Assembly (NCBI GenBank): GCA_050175015.1
Contig: JBFXJJ010000012.1
Coordinates: 1 to 64,000, forward strand
Direction of reading: 5' to 3'
Source of the DNA: Alphaproteobacteria bacterium
GTDB taxonomy: Bacteria; Pseudomonadota; Alphaproteobacteria; JBFXJJ01
DNA: 64,000 nucleotides
A model generated the notes under the pieces. The model was not told the DNA's origin. It saw only the letters and a program-made list of their open reading frames with translations, and searched no databases. Made by a program: the position numbers and the translations under genes. This document shows positions 24,806 to 36,092 of the stretch, piece by piece; the stretch's first letter is position 1; every line of letters begins with the position of its first letter.

Positions 24806-27157
24806 TTATTTTGAACCAGTTACACCATAGCCGCAATATTTAGGCGGGTTATATATCAAAATTTTAGAGACATTAGTAAACGTAAGTTTGGTTGCGCCTC
24901 GTGATAAAACACCGCTAACATCGGGCATTTGGTTATGTCTTGATTGAAATTCCCTAACATCTTGCAGGCTCATGCGAAGTCCATTTTGAAAATCAACATT
25001 CCAACCATAAGTGCTTGCTCCAATATCAACTAAAATAACATTAGTTTCTTCGTTGCCAAAGAAGGTCTGTTCACCCATATCACTTGAGAACTTAAAAACA
25101 TTAGTTAAAGCTTCTGGCTCATTTTCAAAGCTTGGTTCCGATTGTTTCTCATTTGAGGTTCGAACAAAAACTCCTTTTAAGTTATGGAAATATAAAATAT
25201 CGTTGTTGGATCCTACAAGCATACCGTTAGCATTAGGGAAAGTTATGAAGCTTCCCGCTTTATCGTTTAGAGAAATTACTCTGCTGTCAGATAGAACTAG
25301 TCCCCAGTCATCATTTCCTGATAGTCCAAGATGATTCAGCACAAAACCGTGTTCATTTTCATATGCAATATCTAATTTTGAACTTGGAACTGTTATTTTA
25401 GCAATATTTCTAAATTCGGCCTTAGCCCCATTTTTAGCAAGAAGAACCCCACTTCTGCCGTGAGGAATTGTTTGACCAGGAAGAGTTATTGTCTGCCCCG
25501 TTTTTTCATTAATAGGGATAATTGATAAAACATTAATAACTAAATGCCAATTTAACAAACTTTGAGCATTATCATTTAATATTATGTAAGGCTTGTTTTC
25601 ATCAGCAACAAAAGTTTTTGTTCCCTCGTTTGAACCAAAAACAAAGGATTGATTAAGATAAGCGTCGATTTCCTCATTTTTTAAACTTTTGATTTTTGGA
25701 TCAGATGATATTTTAACAATTGTTTCTGTTGATGCATCAGTGCTAGCAATAGGCGCTTGAACTTGAGTTATAATAGGAGTTTGTGGTGCCGCATCGCTTG
25801 TTGATGCTGCGGCAACTTCTTCCATCTTTTGCTCGTCTTCTTCAACGTATTCAACAACCTCTTCAACTACTTCCTCACCTTCGGCGACTGGCGCATCTTC
25901 TTCAACGTATTCAATAACTTCTTCGACTACTTCTTCACCTTCGGAGGCCGGAGCATCTTCTTCAACGTATTCTACAACTTCTTCGACTACCTCTTCACCT
26001 TCGGAGGCCGGAGCATCTTCCTCAACGTATTCAATAACTTCTTCGACTACTTCTTCACCTTCGGAGGCCGGAGCATCTTCCTCAACGTATTCAATAACTT
26101 CCTCGATTACTTCTTCACCTTCGGAGGCCGGAGCATCTTCCTCAACGTATTCAATAACTTCTTCTACTACTTCTTCACCTTCGGCGACTGGCGCGTCTTC
26201 CTCAACGTATTCTACAACTTCTTCGACTACTTCTTCACCCTCGGCAACTGGAACATCTTCTTCAACGTATTCGACAACTTCTTCGACTACTTCTTCACCC
26301 TCGGCAACTGGAACATCTTCTTCAACGTATTCAATAACCTCTTCGACTACTTCTTCACCTTCGGCAACTGGAGCGTCCTCTTCAACGTATTCAATAACTT
26401 CTTCGACTACTTCTTCACCCTCGGCAACTGGAACATCTTCTTCAACGTATTCGATAACTTCCTCGATTACCTCTTCACCCTCGGCGACGGGAGCTTCTTC
26501 TTCAACGTATTCGACAACTTCTTCGACTACTTCTTCACCTTCGGCAACTGGCGCATCTTCTTCAACGTATTCTACAACCTCTTCAACTACTTCTTCGCCT
26601 TCAGCGATTGGAGCTTCTTCCTCGACGTACTCGACAACTTCTTCGATTATTTCTTCCCCTTCGGCAACTGGCGCATCTTCTTCAACGTATTCAATAACTT
26701 CTTCGACTACTTCCTCACCTTCGGCAACAGGAGTGTCCTCTTCAACGTATTCGATAACTTCCTCGATTACCTCTTCACCTTCGGAGGCCGGAGCATCTTC
26801 TTCAACGTATTCTACAACCTCTTCAACTACTTCTTCACCCTCGGCAACTGGAGTGTCCTCTTCAACGTATTCGATAACTTCCTCGATTACCTCTTCACCC
26901 TCGGCAGCGGGAGCATCTTCTTCAACGTATTCGACAACTTCCTCAATTACTTCCTCACCTTCGGCAGCGGGAGCATCTTCTTCAACGTACTCAATAACTT
27001 CCTCGACTACCTCTTCACCTTCGGCAACTGGCGCGTCCTCTTCAACGTATTCGACAACCTCTTCGACTACTTCCTCAGGAGCAGGGGCTTTACTTGCTAG
27101 TGTGGGATTAACCGCTGTTGGAGTTGCAGGTTTAGTAGGATTTTGCTGTTCATTCAT
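24806..27157 (-). CDS. Hypothetical protein with extremely acidic 20-aa tandem repeats and an unrecognised C-terminal domain
   Basis: 783-aa ORF; most variation among repeats is synonymous or conservative in this frame. Confidence 0.85.
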   Translation of the reverse strand: MNEQQNPTKPATPTAVNPTLASKAPAPEEVVEEVVEYVEEDAPVAEGEEVVEEVIEYVEEDAPAAEGEEVIEEVVEYVEEDAPAAEGEEVIEEVIEYVEEDTPVAEGEEVVEEVVEYVEEDAPASEGEEVIEEVIEYVEEDTPVAEGEEVVEEVIEYVEEDAPVAEGEEIIEEVVEYVEEEAPIAEGEEVVEEVVEYVEEDAPVAEGEEVVEEVVEYVEEEAPVAEGEEVIEEVIEYVEEDVPVAEGEEVVEEVIEYVEEDAPVAEGEEVVEEVIEYVEEDVPVAEGEEVVEEVVEYVEEDVPVAEGEEVVEEVVEYVEEDAPVAEGEEVVEEVIEYVEEDAPASEGEEVIEEVIEYVEEDAPASEGEEVVEEVIEYVEEDAPASEGEEVVEEVVEYVEEDAPASEGEEVVEEVIEYVEEDAPVAEGEEVVEEVVEYVEEDEQKMEEVAAASTSDAAPQTPIITQVQAPIASTDASTETIVKISSDPKIKSLKNEEIDAYLNQSFVFGSNEGTKTFVADENKPYIILNDNAQSLLNWHLVINVLSIIPINEKTGQTITLPGQTIPHGRSGVLLAKNGAKAEFRNIAKITVPSSKLDIAYENEHGFVLNHLGLSGNDDWGLVLSDSRVISLNDKAGSFITFPNANGMLVGSNNDILYFHNLKGVFVRTSNEKQSEPSFENEPEALTNVFKFSSDMGEQTFFGNEETNVILVDIGASTYGWNVDFQNGLRMSLQDVREFQSRHNQMPDVSGVLSRGATKLTFTNVSKILIYNPPKYCGYGVTGSK
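25835..27076 (-). repeat. 60-bp tandem repeat, 20.7 copies, encoding EEV(V/I)EEV(V/I)EYVEED(A/V/T)P(V/A)(A/S)EG
   Basis: Columns align across consecutive 60-base lines; 1242 bp. Confidence 0.97.
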
Positions 27158-27247: not shown

Positions 27248-29089
27248 TTATTTAGGTTGTGTCCAATCTTTCTTTAATCGCTCTATTCTTAAGCTGAATA
27301 ATCCTAATTCATGCATAAATTCGCGAGGCAGACGTTGCAAATCAGCGAAAGGCCTTAAAAACTCTTTGTGTTCAATGACATATTGGCGAGTTTTTTTGGC
27401 GTCAACGGTGAATAGAGAATCAAAGCGCTCTCTGTTTATTTCTTGGTTCGCCCAGTTGATGTCCTGATATCTCGGAACCATACCAAAAGGAGATTCTATA
27501 GCGCAGTTCTTTCCTTTTGCTCGATCTATAATCCATTTTAGCAAGCTGAAATTGTTCTCACCATTAACCCAAATTAAATTGCCATTTTGATCACGTCTAA
27601 AGAAGTTCATTCTAAAAACAGGAGGAGGAGCTGATATATTATATCCTGCTTTAAGCCATAAGGCAAAGTAGTCTCCCATATTAGAACCACAGAAGGTAAG
27701 CATACCCATAGGATCTTTAATATAGGTGTCACATTTGGCATTTAAATCACTGCAGTTTTCCGTTTCCATTGTTGCGGCGAGATAAACTCCGTGGCTCCAG
27801 TTAAAGGATTGGAAAATCAAAGGAGTTGAGCTGCTGCCTCGGCTGCTGAATACAAATGCTGAGATAGGAAGTTTTTTATCGGCATATAATTCATAAGAAA
27901 AAGAAGGACAGTTGCTTAAAGGTGAGGCATAACGTGCACTTTGATGGGTTGCAATTTTTCTATTTTCTGGAATCCAGTCGTGTCCCTGCCAATCTACAAG
28001 GTGGTGAGGAGGCGTATCTAACCCTTCCCACCAAATATCGCCGTCATCTGTTATCGCAACATTGGTAAAGATGGTCGATTTTTTTATGGTTTCAATAATG
28101 TTTTTATTTTTTAAACTAGTATTTGATAAAATTCCAAAAAATCCTTTTTCGGGATTGGTTGCATAAAAATAACCATCATCATTAGGTCTAATCCAAGCAA
28201 CATCGTCACCAATGGTATAGATTTTGTATCCACTGAATTTTTCAGGAATGTTAAGTGTTGCCATTGATGTTTTGCCGCCGTTGTCAGGTGAAGCAAAAGC
28301 AATGCAGCTTTTTTCACCTTTGTCATCTTCAACAGCAAGCAGAGACATATGCAAAGGAAACCATCCCTGATTGAGTCCAATATATGAAGCCATTTTAAGC
28401 CCAGCTGCATAACGTGATAAAATAGCATTTTCGCCATATCCACTGCCAAAAGACCATATTTCTTGAGTTTCTGGGAAGCTTGCAATACATATGCTTTCAA
28501 GATTGCAGGGCCAAGAAACATCTTTTTGATTTTCTTTTAAAGGACAGCCAACAGAGTGAACACAATGGATAAAATCGCCATAAGAACCTAAAGCATCAAG
28601 TACCGATTGTCCTGTACTGGTTAAAATATGTAGATGCGTAACAACATAAGGTGAATCTGTTATTTCTATTCCGACTAAAGAATCTGAGGAATCAAGAGCT
28701 CCTAAGCTGAATGGAACAACATATAATGTTCTTCCAGCCATACAGCCATTGAATAAATTTGAAATATTTTCTCGAAGTTCTCTAGGAGGTGCCCAGTTGT
28801 TTGTTGGTCCTGCATCAATTTCTTTAGCTGTGCATAGGTAAGTATGTTCATTGTGAATTTTAGTGTCTTCAGGATGGGTACGGCAAACGTAACTGTTAGG
28901 TCTTTTTGCTTGGTTTAACTTAATATACGTTCCTTTGGCAACCATTGACTGACAAAGGCTGTTAAACATCGTTTCGCTACCATCATACCAGACAACATCA
29001 CGAGGTTTACATAAGTCAACAATTTCATTAATCCAAGAGATTACTTTGGAGTTATTAGTATGATTTTGATTATTAATTAAGCTTTCCAT
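27248..29089 (-). CDS. pckG: GTP-dependent PEP carboxykinase homologue, divergent and possibly non-catalytic
   Basis: AGPTNNW, GCMAGRTLYVVPF, GIEITDSPYV, WSFGSGYG, GDDVAW, NPEKGFFG, IWWEGL; several active-site residues substituted. Confidence 0.85.
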   Translation of the reverse strand: MESLINNQNHTNNSKVISWINEIVDLCKPRDVVWYDGSETMFNSLCQSMVAKGTYIKLNQAKRPNSYVCRTHPEDTKIHNEHTYLCTAKEIDAGPTNNWAPPRELRENISNLFNGCMAGRTLYVVPFSLGALDSSDSLVGIEITDSPYVVTHLHILTSTGQSVLDALGSYGDFIHCVHSVGCPLKENQKDVSWPCNLESICIASFPETQEIWSFGSGYGENAILSRYAAGLKMASYIGLNQGWFPLHMSLLAVEDDKGEKSCIAFASPDNGGKTSMATLNIPEKFSGYKIYTIGDDVAWIRPNDDGYFYATNPEKGFFGILSNTSLKNKNIIETIKKSTIFTNVAITDDGDIWWEGLDTPPHHLVDWQGHDWIPENRKIATHQSARYASPLSNCPSFSYELYADKKLPISAFVFSSRGSSSTPLIFQSFNWSHGVYLAATMETENCSDLNAKCDTYIKDPMGMLTFCGSNMGDYFALWLKAGYNISAPPPVFRMNFFRRDQNGNLIWVNGENNFSLLKWIIDRAKGKNCAIESPFGMVPRYQDINWANQEINRERFDSLFTVDAKKTRQYVIEHKEFLRPFADLQRLPREFMHELGLFSLRIERLKKDWTQPK

Positions 29090-29127
29090 AAATATAAACA
29101 CCTAAAATATCTAAATAAAAAATAATA

Positions 29128-30483
29128 TCATATTGGCAATGTTATTAAAACTCTTAAGCCATTAATTGGACTTTCATCAAGAGATATTTCGCCTCCGTGA
29201 GAGGTTATAATATCTTTTGCAATACTTAGTCCTAAACCAACGCCTCCTGTTGATTTGTTTCTAGAGTTGTCAATTCTGGAAAAGGCTTTAAATACCTCAT
29301 CATATTTTTCTTTAGGGATGCCAATTCCGTCATCATCAATTGTTATCTTAAAATTACTTTTAGTCGCAAAGGTTGCAACAGAAATATTATGGTTACCATA
29401 TTTTACGGCATTAGCAATAATATTTGTTAAGCATCTTTCAAAAGCATTTTTACGCAGTACCATTGTTGTTGAGCTGTTAATATCAAGATTAAAGCTTTTT
29501 TCGGTTTTTTTAAATTTATTCACAACATTGTTGATAATGTCTTCAACTTGAATTTTGACAGCTTTTTCTTCACCTTCGCCTCTCGCAAATGATAAATAAC
29601 CCTCAATCATAGTTTCCATTTCTTCAACATCGGCTAAAAGTTCTTTGATTTCTTCATTCGACGACATCATAGCTAATTGTAATTTCATTCGTGTAATTGG
29701 CGTTCTTAAATCATGAGAAACGCCTGCAAGCATATTAACCCTTTCAGATATCTGTCTTTTTATGCGCTCTTTCATTAAGATAAAAGCTTGAGAGGCTTTT
29801 CTTATTTCTGAAGCTCCTTCAAGTTTGAAGTTGGAAACATCTTGTCCTTTACCAAAATTTTCTGAGGCCTGAGCTAAACGGTACACAGGGCGTATTTGGT
29901 TTTTCATAAAAATTGTAGCTATTCCAAACAATAAAATAGAAATAATAATCATAAAGCCGATAAAAGTGTATGTTGTAGAGCTAAAGAAACGCTTGCTTGG
30001 CGTTGTAATAATTAATAATCCATCATTTAACTGTACAAAGATATTAATTTTTTTATCATCTTTTGAACCTCCTATGGTGTAAGGATAGCTCATATTGCTT
30101 TTTAATATTTCGTTTAAAGATTCAACTAAGACCGTTGTTGGAATAGATTCTGTTTTTTGGGGAAGTTTTTGATCTTTTTGGAAGGAAATTTCCATAAGAA
30201 GGCGCTGCTTTGCCGTTTTAAAGAGTGTGCTGTTAATGTCATCGTCATTAAAATGATTCTTAAGCTGAATAATAAAGGTGATATCACCAACAAGATCAGT
30301 CGCTAAACGGCGAGATACGGTTTCCCAGTGACGGTTAAAAAAGAAATAGGCGGTTGTGAATTGGAAAAGCAGCAAAGGCGTAACGATGATTAAAAGAGAA
30401 CGTTTTAAGAGACTCTTGGGAATAAAACGCTGCTTAAAATATTGTAAAAATGTTTTTTTTCTAATCTTTTGCTTTTCTGCCAT
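29128..30483 (-). CDS. EnvZ-like membrane sensor kinase (HAMP-HisKA-HATPase)
   Basis: Two TM helices, FFNRHWETVSRRL, SHDLRTP, DDDGIGI, GGVGLGLSI. Confidence 0.93.
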   Translation of the reverse strand: MAEKQKIRKKTFLQYFKQRFIPKSLLKRSLLIIVTPLLLFQFTTAYFFFNRHWETVSRRLATDLVGDITFIIQLKNHFNDDDINSTLFKTAKQRLLMEISFQKDQKLPQKTESIPTTVLVESLNEILKSNMSYPYTIGGSKDDKKINIFVQLNDGLLIITTPSKRFFSSTTYTFIGFMIIISILLFGIATIFMKNQIRPVYRLAQASENFGKGQDVSNFKLEGASEIRKASQAFILMKERIKRQISERVNMLAGVSHDLRTPITRMKLQLAMMSSNEEIKELLADVEEMETMIEGYLSFARGEGEEKAVKIQVEDIINNVVNKFKKTEKSFNLDINSSTTMVLRKNAFERCLTNIIANAVKYGNHNISVATFATKSNFKITIDDDGIGIPKEKYDEVFKAFSRIDNSRNKSTGGVGLGLSIAKDIITSHGGEISLDESPINGLRVLITLPI

Positions 30484-30492
30484 CTTATATTG

Positions 30493-31188
30493 TTATTCTG
30501 GTAACAGAATATATCCCTTGCCTCTAATTGTTTGTAGAAACTTTGGTTCTTTAGTGTCTGGCTCAATCTTTTTTCTAAGTCGTGTAATCTGAACATCTAC
30601 TGTTCTTAAGTTTTGCCCTGAAAATGTTAAATCCGCAAGCGTTTCTCTAGAAACTATTTGTCCTAACTTATCGGTCATAATTTTTAGAAGCGTTTTTTCA
30701 ACTGGTGAGAGGTGAACAACTACGTCTTTATAGGTTAATTTTCCAGTGTTAGGATTATAACAAGAATCACCAAACTTGATATTTTGGTAACGAGGTTTTT
30801 CATTCTTAGGGATTCTTTTGAGAATATTGTTAATTCTTAACAGCAGCTCTTTTGGTTCAAAAGGTTTGGGCAAATAGTCATCGGCACCATATTCAAGACC
30901 TGTGATGCGTTCATTTACTTCTGACATTGCCGTCAGCATTAAAATCGGGGTCATATTTTCTTTGCGGAACCTAAGAACAAATGAAAAACCATCTTCTCCA
31001 GGCATCATAACATCAACAATAAGCAAATCGAAGTTGAAGATACTTATCATTTTGTCGGCATTCTTAGTATCTTCTGCGGTGCTTACATAAAAACCGTTTT
31101 CTAAAAGATATTTTTTTAATAAGTTTCTGAGACGATTATCATCGTCAATCACTAGGATATGCTGCTTTTTTTTATGTATATGATTCAT
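30493..31188 (-). CDS. OmpR-family response regulator
   Basis: ILVIDDD, VDVMMPGEDG, GADDYLPKPF, RTVDVQITRLRKKIE. Confidence 0.95.
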   Translation of the reverse strand: MNHIHKKKQHILVIDDDNRLRNLLKKYLLENGFYVSTAEDTKNADKMISIFNFDLLIVDVMMPGEDGFSFVLRFRKENMTPILMLTAMSEVNERITGLEYGADDYLPKPFEPKELLLRINNILKRIPKNEKPRYQNIKFGDSCYNPNTGKLTYKDVVVHLSPVEKTLLKIMTDKLGQIVSRETLADLTFSGQNLRTVDVQITRLRKKIEPDTKEPKFLQTIRGKGYILLPE

Positions 31189-34148: not shown

Positions 34149-36092
34149 CTAGTTCATATTTTTTATTTCATTAGCAGTAAGTTCAATACTGCTAACAACT
34201 TCTCCAGATTGAGCCGAACTTTGGTTAAAAGCTTCTTCCAAAGAATTAAAACGCTGTTCAATCGAATGAATATTAAGTTGCAGTTGTTCATAAATTACCG
34301 AAACATCATCTAATTTATGGTTGATTGCTTGTTCACTTTCTTTGGTAGTTTCAATAACTTTCTTTGACTCTCCCGCAAGTTTTCTAACTTCTTCAGCAAC
34401 AACAGCAAACCCTTTACCAGCATCGCCAGCTCTTGCTGCTTCAATAGTAGCATTAAGAGCAAGCAAGTTGGTTTGAGCTGCAATATCCACAATTTCTTCA
34501 GAAACTCTAGAAAATTCATTAAGATTGATTTTAACACCATCAATAACATTGTTAAGATTTCCTGATACGGATAAAATTTCTTCTAAATTTTGCCGTAAAC
34601 CATCAAAATGTTCGGCATTGCTGCCCGTAATTTGACTTAAATATTTTGCCTGACCCAAAATATTATCAACATTGTTATTGATTGTTATAAATTTGTTTTT
34701 TCTCTCTTCATTAAAAGCTTCAATTTTTTCAATATTCTTAACCAGCTCATCATTTTTGGCTAAGATAATATTTTGTTCATATTCCAGCTCTTTTTTATTA
34801 TAAAACATACAGTTTTCTTTGTGATTTTGACCTTTAAAAACAGCGGTTGCAAATCTTTTACAGCTGCCATAACCGCAGGCTCCACAATTAATTTCACGGG
34901 ACTCTTTGGTATCTTTATGTAAACTATTAAAAACTTGATCAAATTCTGTAGAATTAGGATTAGATATTTTAATTTCACTAGAATGGTCAGAATAACGTCT
35001 TAAAAAATCTTCCAATTTTAAGTTCTCTTCACACCATTTTTCCATAGTATAAATAGATTCCTTAAAACGCTTTTTTTCGGTTTTATCAATAATCACCTGC
35101 TGTTTCATAACATTAGTACGATAATCAATATCGTCAATTTCAATATCGCGACCCGTGCCTGTACCAAGATTACAGCCTTGCGCACAATTTAAAATATCGA
35201 CTAAAAGCGGTGTTTTTTTACCTTCTTTAATTCTATCAGCATAGTTATCTAAATAGTGATAGGCGTGTTCAAAACCTTCAACCTGTTTTACCCAAGCGCC
35301 CGTAACATAATGCTCAACATTTTCCCTAAGACCACCAGGGCGGCTATAAGTTAAGCCTAGACCACAGGTTGGAATATTATCAAAGTCTTTTTCCTCATAT
35401 GAGGTTAAGTTGATTTTGTTTTTTTCTAAATATTCGTGAATTTTAGCATAAGTAACGTTATATTGCAGAATATTCTTCGTATTAGGATCATTGACTTCAT
35501 CGTATTTAGCAATGCAAGGAGAAAGAATAGCAATCGGTTCCGAAATATCCATATATTTGCGCATATAAACTGCGGTACAGCTTATAGGACTATGAACTGG
35601 GGATAACTGAGAAAGAATCTCTGGTTTATATTTTTGAATATAATTAACAATCGCAGGGCATGGCTGAGCAATGACCGTTTTCAGTCCTTTAGTTGCAATA
35701 GCCTTAAGATAGGCCCAAGTAGTAATGTCAGCGCCAAAGGAAACGTCATAAATTACATTAACGCCGATCGACTTTAAATAGCCAAATAATTTCTTATAGT
35801 TGCTAAAATTGTGATAAACAGAAGGCGCTGCAACGCAGGAAATGCGTCTGCCCTTCTTTAGATCATCAAAAAATTCCTCGGTATCGTCAATATAATAGCG
35901 AGCTTCGTGATCGCAGACTGCAATACAAGCTCCACATTTAATACATTTAGTATCATCAACTTTAATGATACTCTTGCCGTTTTCAATGGCGCTGTAGTTG
36001 GCTTCAAGCGTCGGACAGGCAGCAATGCACTTGTTGCAGCCTACGCACTTTTCAGCGTCAACATTAATAATTTTTTTTAAAGGTTTAAGCAT
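34149..36092 (-). CDS. Soluble sensory [FeFe]-hydrogenase-like protein fused to a methyl-accepting chemotaxis domain (group C type)
   Basis: Two CxxCxxCxxxC ferredoxin motifs; H-domain L1 AQPCP, L2 [10 protein letters not shown]3 [12 protein letters not shown]; CGACGYGSC FeS motif; MCP tip [34 protein letters not shown]; no TM. Confidence 0.9.

Follow-up and report, generated by a model that had tools for sequence, protein, structure and literature searches.

The window analyzed here is a stretch of 64,000 nucleotides (positions 1 to 64,000, forward strand, of contig JBFXJJ010000012.1, assembly GCA_050175015.1) from an alphaproteobacterial genome, called G000 below. The gene under study is an open reading frame (ORF) derived from a GTP-dependent phosphoenolpyruvate carboxykinase (PEPCK), in which many of the residues that bind substrate and metal in the canonical enzyme have been replaced. 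The ORF and its probable translation signal lie as follows.

27248..29089, (-) strand: PEPCK-derived ORF of 613 amino acids (aa), with ATG at 29089 and stop codon at 27248-27250, encoding protein P0002.
29099..29103, (-) strand: AGGTG, a Shine-Dalgarno-like site read directly from the sequence, 9 nt 5' of the ATG and containing the alternative GTG 'start'.

The longest open frame of the gene spans 27248..29101 (-), 617 codons from a GTG, and because this GTG sits within the Shine-Dalgarno-like AGGTG, the ATG at 29089 is the likelier start. The resulting 613-aa form is also an entry of the public protein database. Residues are numbered here from the ATG; the same ORF read from GTG 29101 was handled as P0001, in which numbers are higher by 4. 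A contig of the probable source run shows 0 differences from the window over 2051 nt, the sole listed variant within the gene between read sets (28979 A>G) is synonymous, and short near-identical pieces of the gene region are also present in another landfill study. Compensated frameshifts were considered as the origin of the odd motifs and excluded, the other two frames holding no canonical motif at nine sites. Judged from these frames and reads, the motif changes in P0002 are true point substitutions.

P0002 is matched end to end by the Pfam families PEPCK_N (E 1.5e-74) and PEPCK_GTP (E 9.3e-103), and it scores 678 bits with the NCBIfam equivalog model NF003253 (PEPCK GTP), for which the cut-off is 504. 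An AlphaFold2 model, computed with an input alignment of 60 canonical homologues, has a predicted local distance difference test score (pLDDT) of 92.3 and a predicted template-modeling (TM) score of 0.91; after the first ten residues the lowest pLDDT is found at the omega-loop lid, with blocks in 441-460 at 71 and 76. Foldseek superposes the model on solved PEPCKs from Polaromonas, Mycobacterium tuberculosis (Mtb), C. glutamicum and rat with TM scores of 0.91-0.95 (0.95 for PDB entry 9e35). Because the model leans on canonical sequences, it demonstrates compatibility with the fold and not the geometry of the pocket.

Within this family P0002 is strongly divergent. P0001 deviates at 99 of the 286 columns that are at least 98% conserved in its 119 nearest homologues, and the next-worst sequence does so at 15 of 294. 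We also compiled 60 diverse canonical PEPCKs, a set picked for intact catalytic residues, so that circularity affects these positions and not the remaining columns. P0002 is changed at 42 of the 140-141 columns that are at least 90% conserved in this set, compared with 1-32 for other divergent cluster representatives, and the changes affect 14/27 ligand-contact columns versus 28 of the 113-114 other conserved columns (Fisher p=0.009). A PEPCK_GTP match is present in 44 of 401 same-class genomes; the 42 full-length canonical copies score 519-579 bits with PF00821 and the G000 copy scores 346 bits, about 170 bits or more under every full-length canonical copy in the class. The lowest scores include two fragments and, besides these, a partial copy at a contig end (G328) and a second copy in genome G159 (284 bits), to which we return below. 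In trees, the P0002 branch is about 4-5 times as long as those of canonical sisters. By all these sequence measures the divergence far exceeds what is ordinary for the family. AT mutation pressure as its sole cause was judged unlikely, PEPCKs at low-GC loci in relatives (a G002 locus at 37% GC, L022 at 38%) being canonical or found via canonical motifs.

To place the changes, P0002 was aligned by HMMER with the solved Polaromonas PEPCK and by MAFFT with canonical homologues. Rat/human residue numbers were assigned by motif and checked against the available text of PMC12529880, in which R84 of Polaromonas naphthalenivorans PEPCK is the counterpart of rat R87 and F525 and Y/F530 are also given, and against that of PMC4631375. 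The list of ligand-contact residues and the roles assigned to them come from the latter source and not from P0002. The regions concerned are given below from the N terminus onward.

28832..28876, (-) strand: former R-loop, residues 72-86; DVARVE has become DTKIHN, with A86>K and R87>I (I78).
28388..28453, (-) strand: former GSGYGGN...LGKKCFAL region, residues 213-234, now GSGYGEN and LSRYAAGL; G237>E220, K243>R226, K244>Y227, Y235 kept.
28259..28300, (-) strand: P-loop, which touches the phosphates of the nucleotide in the canonical enzyme, residues 264-277; FPSACGKTN has become SPDNGGKTS, with F284>S, S286>D, C288>G and N292>S, and with P285, G289, K290 and T291 kept.
28202..28216, (-) strand: TIGDD, residues 292-296; equivalents of D310/D311 kept.
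27926..27952, (-) strand: former HPNSRF region, residues 380-388, now HQSARY; N403>S384, R405 kept (R386).
27734..27775, (-) strand: former omega-loop lid, residues 439-452; ATMGSETTAAA has become ATMETENCSDL, that is, GSETTAAA>ETENCSDL.
27542..27613, (-) strand: former guanine pocket, residues 493-516; W516>F, F525>L, P528>V, G529>N and F530>G, with F517, W527 and N533 kept.

These alignments reproduce every substitution listed in the initial annotation, which was made from the letters of the window, and agree with it that the ORF is intact and that the P-loop GKT, H264, D310/D311 and R405 are kept; proper alignment, which that annotation had named as one possible refutation, does not restore R87, K244 or N403. 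The annotation had also pointed to FGGRR becoming FSSRG. The change is there, but the second arginine (R436) carries little weight, since the nearest canonical relatives already have L, M, V or Q at the position where P0002 has Gly. The replacements W516>F, F525>L, P528>V, G529>N and F530>G, the lid, and the changes V335>I, A336>L, P337>S and G338>N in the FGVAPGT region (G334 is kept) are losses that it had not listed.

Five residues, R87, K243, K244, S286 and G529, are invariant in the 60 canonical PEPCKs, and all five are replaced in P0002. The metal site keeps H264, D310 and D311 and has K244>Y; K244, which we take to be a ligand of the M1 metal together with H264 and D311, is lost in P0002 as aligned. 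The equivalent Asp/Lys/His metal site is named in a paper on Mtb Pck. The oxaloacetate (OAA)/phosphoenolpyruvate (PEP)-binding set R87, G237, N403 and R405 (roles from PMC4631375) is reduced to R405 alone, and over the listed pocket residues the net charge read from the alignment goes from +3 in the canonical enzyme to -1. In the available text of PMC12529880, the lid and the R-loop are required for closure and catalysis. The guanine-pocket phenylalanine triad F517/F525/F530 of the rat enzyme corresponds to F502/F510/F515 of Mtb Pck (PMC4370629), for which the same source reports that F515A and F502A nearly eliminate activity and that F515A leaves no measurable GDP/GTP binding and no activity.

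The closest proteins to P0002 among 5.8 billion are canonical PEPCKs of 47-49% identity, several labeled Alphaproteobacteria, and the comparison genomes include none from the same order as G000. Among the best 80 of 597 confirmed loci from a scan of genome contigs with canonical motif patterns there was no closer relative, only canonical PEPCKs of 40-47% identity. Degenerate relatives were reached through G159, a same-class genome of 1.3 Mb that is the sole one of its order (locus GC 31%) and carries a canonical PEPCK and a degenerate copy (loci L097, G159:C3:8000-14928, and L099, G159:C22). The second, degenerate copy lies behind pgsA and a response regulator-histidine kinase pair as in G000, is 37-47% identical to P0002 and bears the same C-terminal signature; the G159 assembly breaks it at a T-run into frames of 195 and 408 aa, with a short deletion. 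G159 differs from G000, in which no canonical copy was found. The 408-aa piece, used as a query, led to P0299, which is degenerate but intact at 614 aa, and the 90% cluster of that piece contains P0448, intact at 623 aa, derived from other assemblies and 94-97% identical to both G159 pieces. The notion that the G159 copy is a faster-decaying true pseudogene was dropped in view of the intact P0448. Both P0299 and P0448 are metagenomic, are unannotated or automatically named 'PEPCK (GTP)', and are 40-48% identical to P0002. Metagenome scans with an alignment of the C-terminal signature and with P0448 found no further members.

In the careful tree (IQ-TREE, 29 rows, LG+C20+F+G4; quick trees were made besides), P0002, P0299 and P0448 fall on one side of a branch with an ultrafast bootstrap of 99 and a Shimodaira-Hasegawa-like approximate likelihood ratio test (SH-aLRT) value of 99, on a stem of 0.39-0.44. 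The trio is nested with eight canonical sequences, among them those of the same-class genomes G018 and G038 (99/93), and its end branches measure 0.6-2.0 substitutions per site. P0299 is a singleton, and its nearest neighbors, at 52% identity, belong to this canonical group. A true grouping is favored over attraction because the synteny is common to G000 and G159 and because P0002 and P0299 share 22 residues that are rare (<5%) in canonical sequences.

The three proteins have lost much the same core. At 56 of the 140 canonical-conserved columns (at least 90%) every member retains the canonical residue, and at another 22 none does; these 22 include V85, A86, R87, E89, G237, K243, K244, S286, N292, V335, A336, P337, four lid positions and F525. 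P285, K290, T291, G334 and W527 are the only ones of the 27 ligand-contact columns to survive in every member. The remainder differs by lineage: P0448 alone has lost H264, D310 and D311, R405 is present in P0002 only, S286>D is common to P0002 and P0299, and P0299 lacks G289, R405 and N533. P0299 and P0448 retain the WPGF that P0002 has lost. Most simply, a common ancestor would already have been without the OAA/PEP site, the M1 lysine and the lid, and each lineage would then have lost other former catalytic residues of its own.

Conservation within the clade has moved away from the former active site. P0002 and P0299 are 47% identical overall, and their least conserved windows are the lid, the KK region, the guanine pocket, the H264 and N403/R405 regions, the R-loop and the P-loop, at 15-35% identity where canonical conservation is 0.70-0.83. 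Across all three members, 2/15 residues of the R-loop window (canonical conservation 0.78) and 2/14 of the lid window (0.75) are identical. The most conserved stretch lies at the opposite end of the protein.

27263..27340, (-) strand: C-terminal helix, residues 584-609, containing LRPFADLQRLPREFMHELGLFSLRIER; no stretch of the degenerate clade is better conserved.

Three-way identity is 69% in this helix compared with 30% overall, and over 588-607, a stretch with a canonical conservation of 0.51, P0002 matches P0299 with 90% identity.

Three indirect observations, besides the retained Shine-Dalgarno-like site, suggest that the gene is maintained by selection. Intact ORFs of 613, 614 and 623 aa persist in three deep lineages. 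In this AT-rich DNA the other five frames of the gene hold 25-60 stops and 5.3% of single-base changes give a stop, and in a neutral point-mutation simulation started from a low-GC canonical relative, with indels ignored, 0-2/400 runs were free of stops at 25% amino acid change and 8-15/400 at 10%. Finally, measured against the near-clade consensus and with site classes drawn from 21 distant canonical sequences, P0002 has changed at 24% of sites in the most conserved class and at 68% in the most variable one, compared with 3% and 65% for the canonical sister P0122. Synonymous sites are saturated, since the relatives available at the DNA level are only 40-49% identical in protein.

The gene is flanked by co-oriented neighbors.

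30493..31188, (-) strand: OmpR-type response regulator (RR), first gene of the conserved RR-HK-PEPCK order.
29128..30483, (-) strand: EnvZ-like sensor histidine kinase (HK), 26-38 nt upstream of the PEPCK-like gene and co-oriented with it; a conserved neighbor in G018, G038 and G159.
24806..27157, (-) strand: downstream gene X, co-oriented, with an acidic tandem-repeat N-terminal region and a conserved C-terminal domain of about 280 aa of no known family.

The four-gene order RR-HK-PEPCK-X is common to G000, G018 and G038, and because of this match the window gene is the positional counterpart of a normal PEPCK: in G018 and G038, as in all six relatives examined, every canonical motif is present. 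No RR-HK synteny at comparable similarity was seen among the best 80 of the 597 canonical-motif loci. No terminator-like sites were found on the coding strand between HK, the PEPCK-like gene and X; the promoter and terminator scan performed at chance level (16 found versus 20.3 expected, and 4 versus 4.6). The RR and HK match only OmpR and EnvZ in NCBIfam, below threshold. In tblastn of the 2.5-Mb G000 genome the window RR has no paralogue at E<1e-20 and the HK has a single weaker one (C16), for which reason the pair may be the organism's main OmpR/EnvZ-type system. According to the available text of PMC2937029, many alphaproteobacteria have hprK after chvI-chvG and pckA adjoins the cluster in divergent orientation. 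A PEPCK beside a ChvI/ChvG-type pair is therefore a known alphaproteobacterial theme, with the difference that in the window the gene is co-oriented with the pair.

Gene X encodes 783 aa, of which about 450 form acidic tandem repeats of about 20 aa (EEVVEYVEEDAPVAEGE-like), and its C-terminal domain ends in YCGYG; searches of X gave no Pfam match above cut-off and none in NCBIfam. Homologues of X with acidic N-terminal regions of their own lie directly 3' of the canonical PEPCK in G018 and G038. A 423-aa ORF on the (+) strand, 25829..27100, is an antisense shadow of the X repeats. Elsewhere in the window, 34149..36092 (-) encodes a 647-aa protein in which 4Fe-4S and Fe-only-hydrogenase large-subunit-like domains are joined to a methyl-accepting chemotaxis signaling domain, which possibly makes the protein a chemoreceptor for redox state or H2.

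The initial annotation had suggested looking for a second, canonical pck in the genome. In G000, which is 99.4% complete, no other PEPCK_GTP was found, and no PEPCK_ATP, PEP carboxylase or GlpX. The genome has a pyruvate-phosphate dikinase (PPDK; 1364 bits, cut-off 843), a PtsI-family protein, a 423-aa protein with a malic-enzyme domain, a short HprK (C1) and an OadA/PycB-like carboxyltransferase subunit with scores below cut-offs. PEPCK activity would be dispensable in G000, because PEP is obtainable from C4 acids via malic enzyme and PPDK. The enzyme appears often dispensable in the class, since 357 of the 401 genomes searched yielded no GTP-PEPCK.

We lean, with modest confidence, toward P0002 being an old, maintained, PEPCK-derived pseudoenzyme that serves a role other than the PEPCK reaction. 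Such a protein would descend from a canonical GTP-PEPCK encoded behind an OmpR/EnvZ-type pair in one alphaproteobacterial-type subclade. The ancestor of P0002, P0299 and P0448 would have lost the R-loop with R87, together with G237, K243, K244, S286 and the omega-loop lid, while PPDK and malic enzyme let the genome do without PEPCK. The fold and the reading frame would then have been retained in three deep lineages as constraint moved off the active-site motifs to other surfaces, chiefly the C-terminal helix. The surviving Lys-Thr of the P-loop possibly still holds phosphate or a nucleotide, and P0002 may be linked to the neighboring two-component system. We infer that P0002 no longer catalyzes the reaction OAA + GTP <-> PEP + GDP + CO2, and here the sequence, the phylogeny and two intact relatives with the same losses bear out the initial proposal of a candidate pseudoenzyme on a full-length fold.

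The same annotation had further suggested that nucleotide or metal binding persists, in a GTP sensor or an enzyme with a new substrate, and this part is weakened by the glycine at position 530, by the survival of 5/27 ligand contacts in all three proteins and by the poor conservation of the active-site windows. In particular, GTP sensing by P0002 is doubtful, because the equivalent of Mtb F515, whose change to Ala abolished nucleotide binding (PMC4370629), is Gly. The role of P0002 is most likely non-catalytic, that of a binding or regulatory protein, and perhaps it was already present in the canonical ancestor, tied to the two-component system or to the C-terminal helix. We consider quite unlikely the more specific proposal that PEPCK of this subclade has a second, non-catalytic job with the adjacent OmpR/EnvZ-type (possibly ChvI/ChvG-like) system, exerted via the C-terminal helix, and that the degenerate lineages keep only that job.

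Several observations weigh against a maintained pseudoenzyme. The excess of change in P0002 over P0122 is about uniform (0.22-0.27) in the three most conserved site classes, as general relaxation gives, and P0448 is changed at 48 of the 113 conserved columns that are not ligand contacts. P0448 also lacks H264, D310, D311 and R405, and the active-site windows are unconserved within the clade, which leaves the predicted C-terminal helix as the sole nameable functional site that the members share. A related helix is fairly conserved in the canonical sister sequences too, and it is therefore not a new feature. The degenerate copy in the G159 assembly is frameshifted. The three rows of the clade are long-branched and compositionally odd, so that their grouping may reflect long-branch or compositional attraction, and each member is a singleton or belongs to a tiny cluster among the 5.8 billion proteins. 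As its input the AlphaFold model had aligned canonical PEPCKs, from which the family fold would emerge anyway.

Part of this evidence would be equally expected of a dispensable PEPCK gene that is drifting toward a pseudogene under relaxed selection only, its frame open by chance, through recency or because an early stop would be polar on X, which would belong to the same transcription unit. Long end branches, an excess of change spread evenly over the conserved classes and former active-site motifs that are the least conserved parts of the clade all fit such drift, as do the frameshift at the T-run in G159, where a second, canonical PEPCK is present, the alternative routes through PPDK and malic enzyme in G000, the lack of a terminator-like site on the coding strand between HK, the PEPCK-like gene and X, and the 357 of 401 class genomes in which GTP-PEPCK was not found. 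We nevertheless hold drift alone to be rather unlikely. It must accommodate an intact ORF of 613-623 aa in each of three deep lineages, when 0-2 of 400 neutral simulations stayed free of stops at 25% amino acid change even with indels uncounted, and it must accommodate the 56/140 canonical-conserved columns kept in all three proteins, the 69% three-way identity of the C-terminal helix and the lower rate of change at conserved than at variable columns. Bacterial deletion bias is moreover expected to purge a useless gene of 1.8 kb.

Retention of catalysis in some form was weighed in two versions. In one, P0002 is a neofunctionalized enzyme: with a nucleoside triphosphate bound at its P-loop and its Asp-Asp/His metal site, it would transfer or hydrolyze phosphate on a new, less anionic substrate, perhaps even as a protein kinase in the manner of HPr kinase/phosphorylase (HprK/P), which belongs to the same fold class. 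P285, K290 and T291 are indeed present in all three proteins, H264, D310 and D311 in P0002 and P0299, and R405 and Y235 in P0002; new acidic or oxygen-ligand side chains (E220, Y227 and D269) stand at the old metal and substrate site, with S286>D in both P0002 and P0299; and G237>E/D recurs in nine other degenerate PEPCK homologues. Three-way identity is, however, only 4/14 in the P-loop, 1/9 in the N403/R405 region and 5/24 in the guanine pocket, P0448 is without H264, D310, D311 and R405, and P0002 is without the Phe whose Ala mutant ended nucleotide binding in Mtb Pck (PMC4370629). Retention of K290/T291 is weak evidence, as about half of the ligand residues survive anyway. We judge this version improbable, and a new catalytic site common to the clade unlikely, because beyond the P-loop Lys-Thr no pocket residues are common to the trio. 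In the other version P0002 is a working PEP carboxykinase with a remodeled, compensating active site. The equivalog-level score in the hidden Markov model search, the full fold and its position as the only PEPCK homologue in the genome speak for it, along with the conservative K243>R and the presence of H264, D310, D311, R405, Y235, K290 and T291. Against these stand the replacement of R87, K243, K244 and S286, each invariant in the 60 canonical enzymes, the rewritten lid and R-loop (needed for closure and catalysis, PMC12529880), the broken guanine Phe triad (PMC4370629) and a pocket that is down four positive charges net. A working carboxykinase is thus very improbable.

Taking P0002 as a maintained pseudoenzyme, a non-catalytic role can be framed as a concrete, testable hypothesis from the conserved position of its gene next to a two-component pair and from the C-terminal helix, to which constraint has shifted. 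If the subclade enzyme does moonlight in this way, the degenerate lineages would be natural separation-of-function variants, a central metabolic enzyme would double as a signaling component, and the pseudo-PEPCKs of this and several other clades could represent an unrecognized class of bacterial regulators. There is also a practical consequence: because P0002 passes the NCBIfam PEPCK (GTP) equivalog model, pipelines will annotate it as a working gluconeogenic enzyme, and an OAA-to-PEP step would then enter metabolic reconstructions of the organism and its relatives in error.

P0002 has counterparts elsewhere in the family. Among 61 other sequences (50%-identity cluster representatives and near homologues), 27 have at least three core residues replaced, and a few of the 27 are fragments. 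These other degenerate PEPCK_GTP homologues, about two dozen of them full-length, have lost R87, K243/K244 and more; GK[TS] persists in many, and G237>E/D occurs in nine. None of the groups (for example P0135/P0183, P0226/P0230, P0162/P0201/P0202/P0260, P0159/P0187/P0174 and P0125) is close to P0002, and because they fall in separate clades of the family tree they appear to be independent events. One of them, P0174, comes from a nematode. Some degenerate clusters recur across many samples, that of P0167, for example, comprising 18 members at 90% identity. Loss of catalysis with retention of the fold thus seems to be a recurrent, unstudied fate of PEPCK; in the full-text literature searched on inactive PEPCK homologues, as judged by abstracts, no PEPCK pseudoenzyme is described.

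As a candidate pseudoenzyme derived from a metabolic enzyme, P0002 would be of a kind already known. HPr kinase/phosphorylase (HprK/P) is a P-loop protein kinase of PEPCK-like fold class. It has a P-loop Lys-Thr and acidic residues without PEP/OAA chemistry, as P0002 probably does; a sequence match between the two was neither sought nor found, and G000 carries its own short hprK elsewhere (C1). The canonical GTP-PEPCK (EC 4.1.1.32; PF17297 and PF00821; NF003253), with solved examples from P. naphthalenivorans (9e32-9e38), M. tuberculosis (Pck, 4wie and 4r43) and C. glutamicum (2zci), has the same two-domain architecture, length and predicted fold as P0002 at 40-41% identity. Both have the P-loop Lys-Thr, H264, D310/D311, R405 and Y235, whereas R87, G237, K243, K244, S286, N292, N403, the lid and F525/F530 of the canonical enzyme are replaced in P0002.

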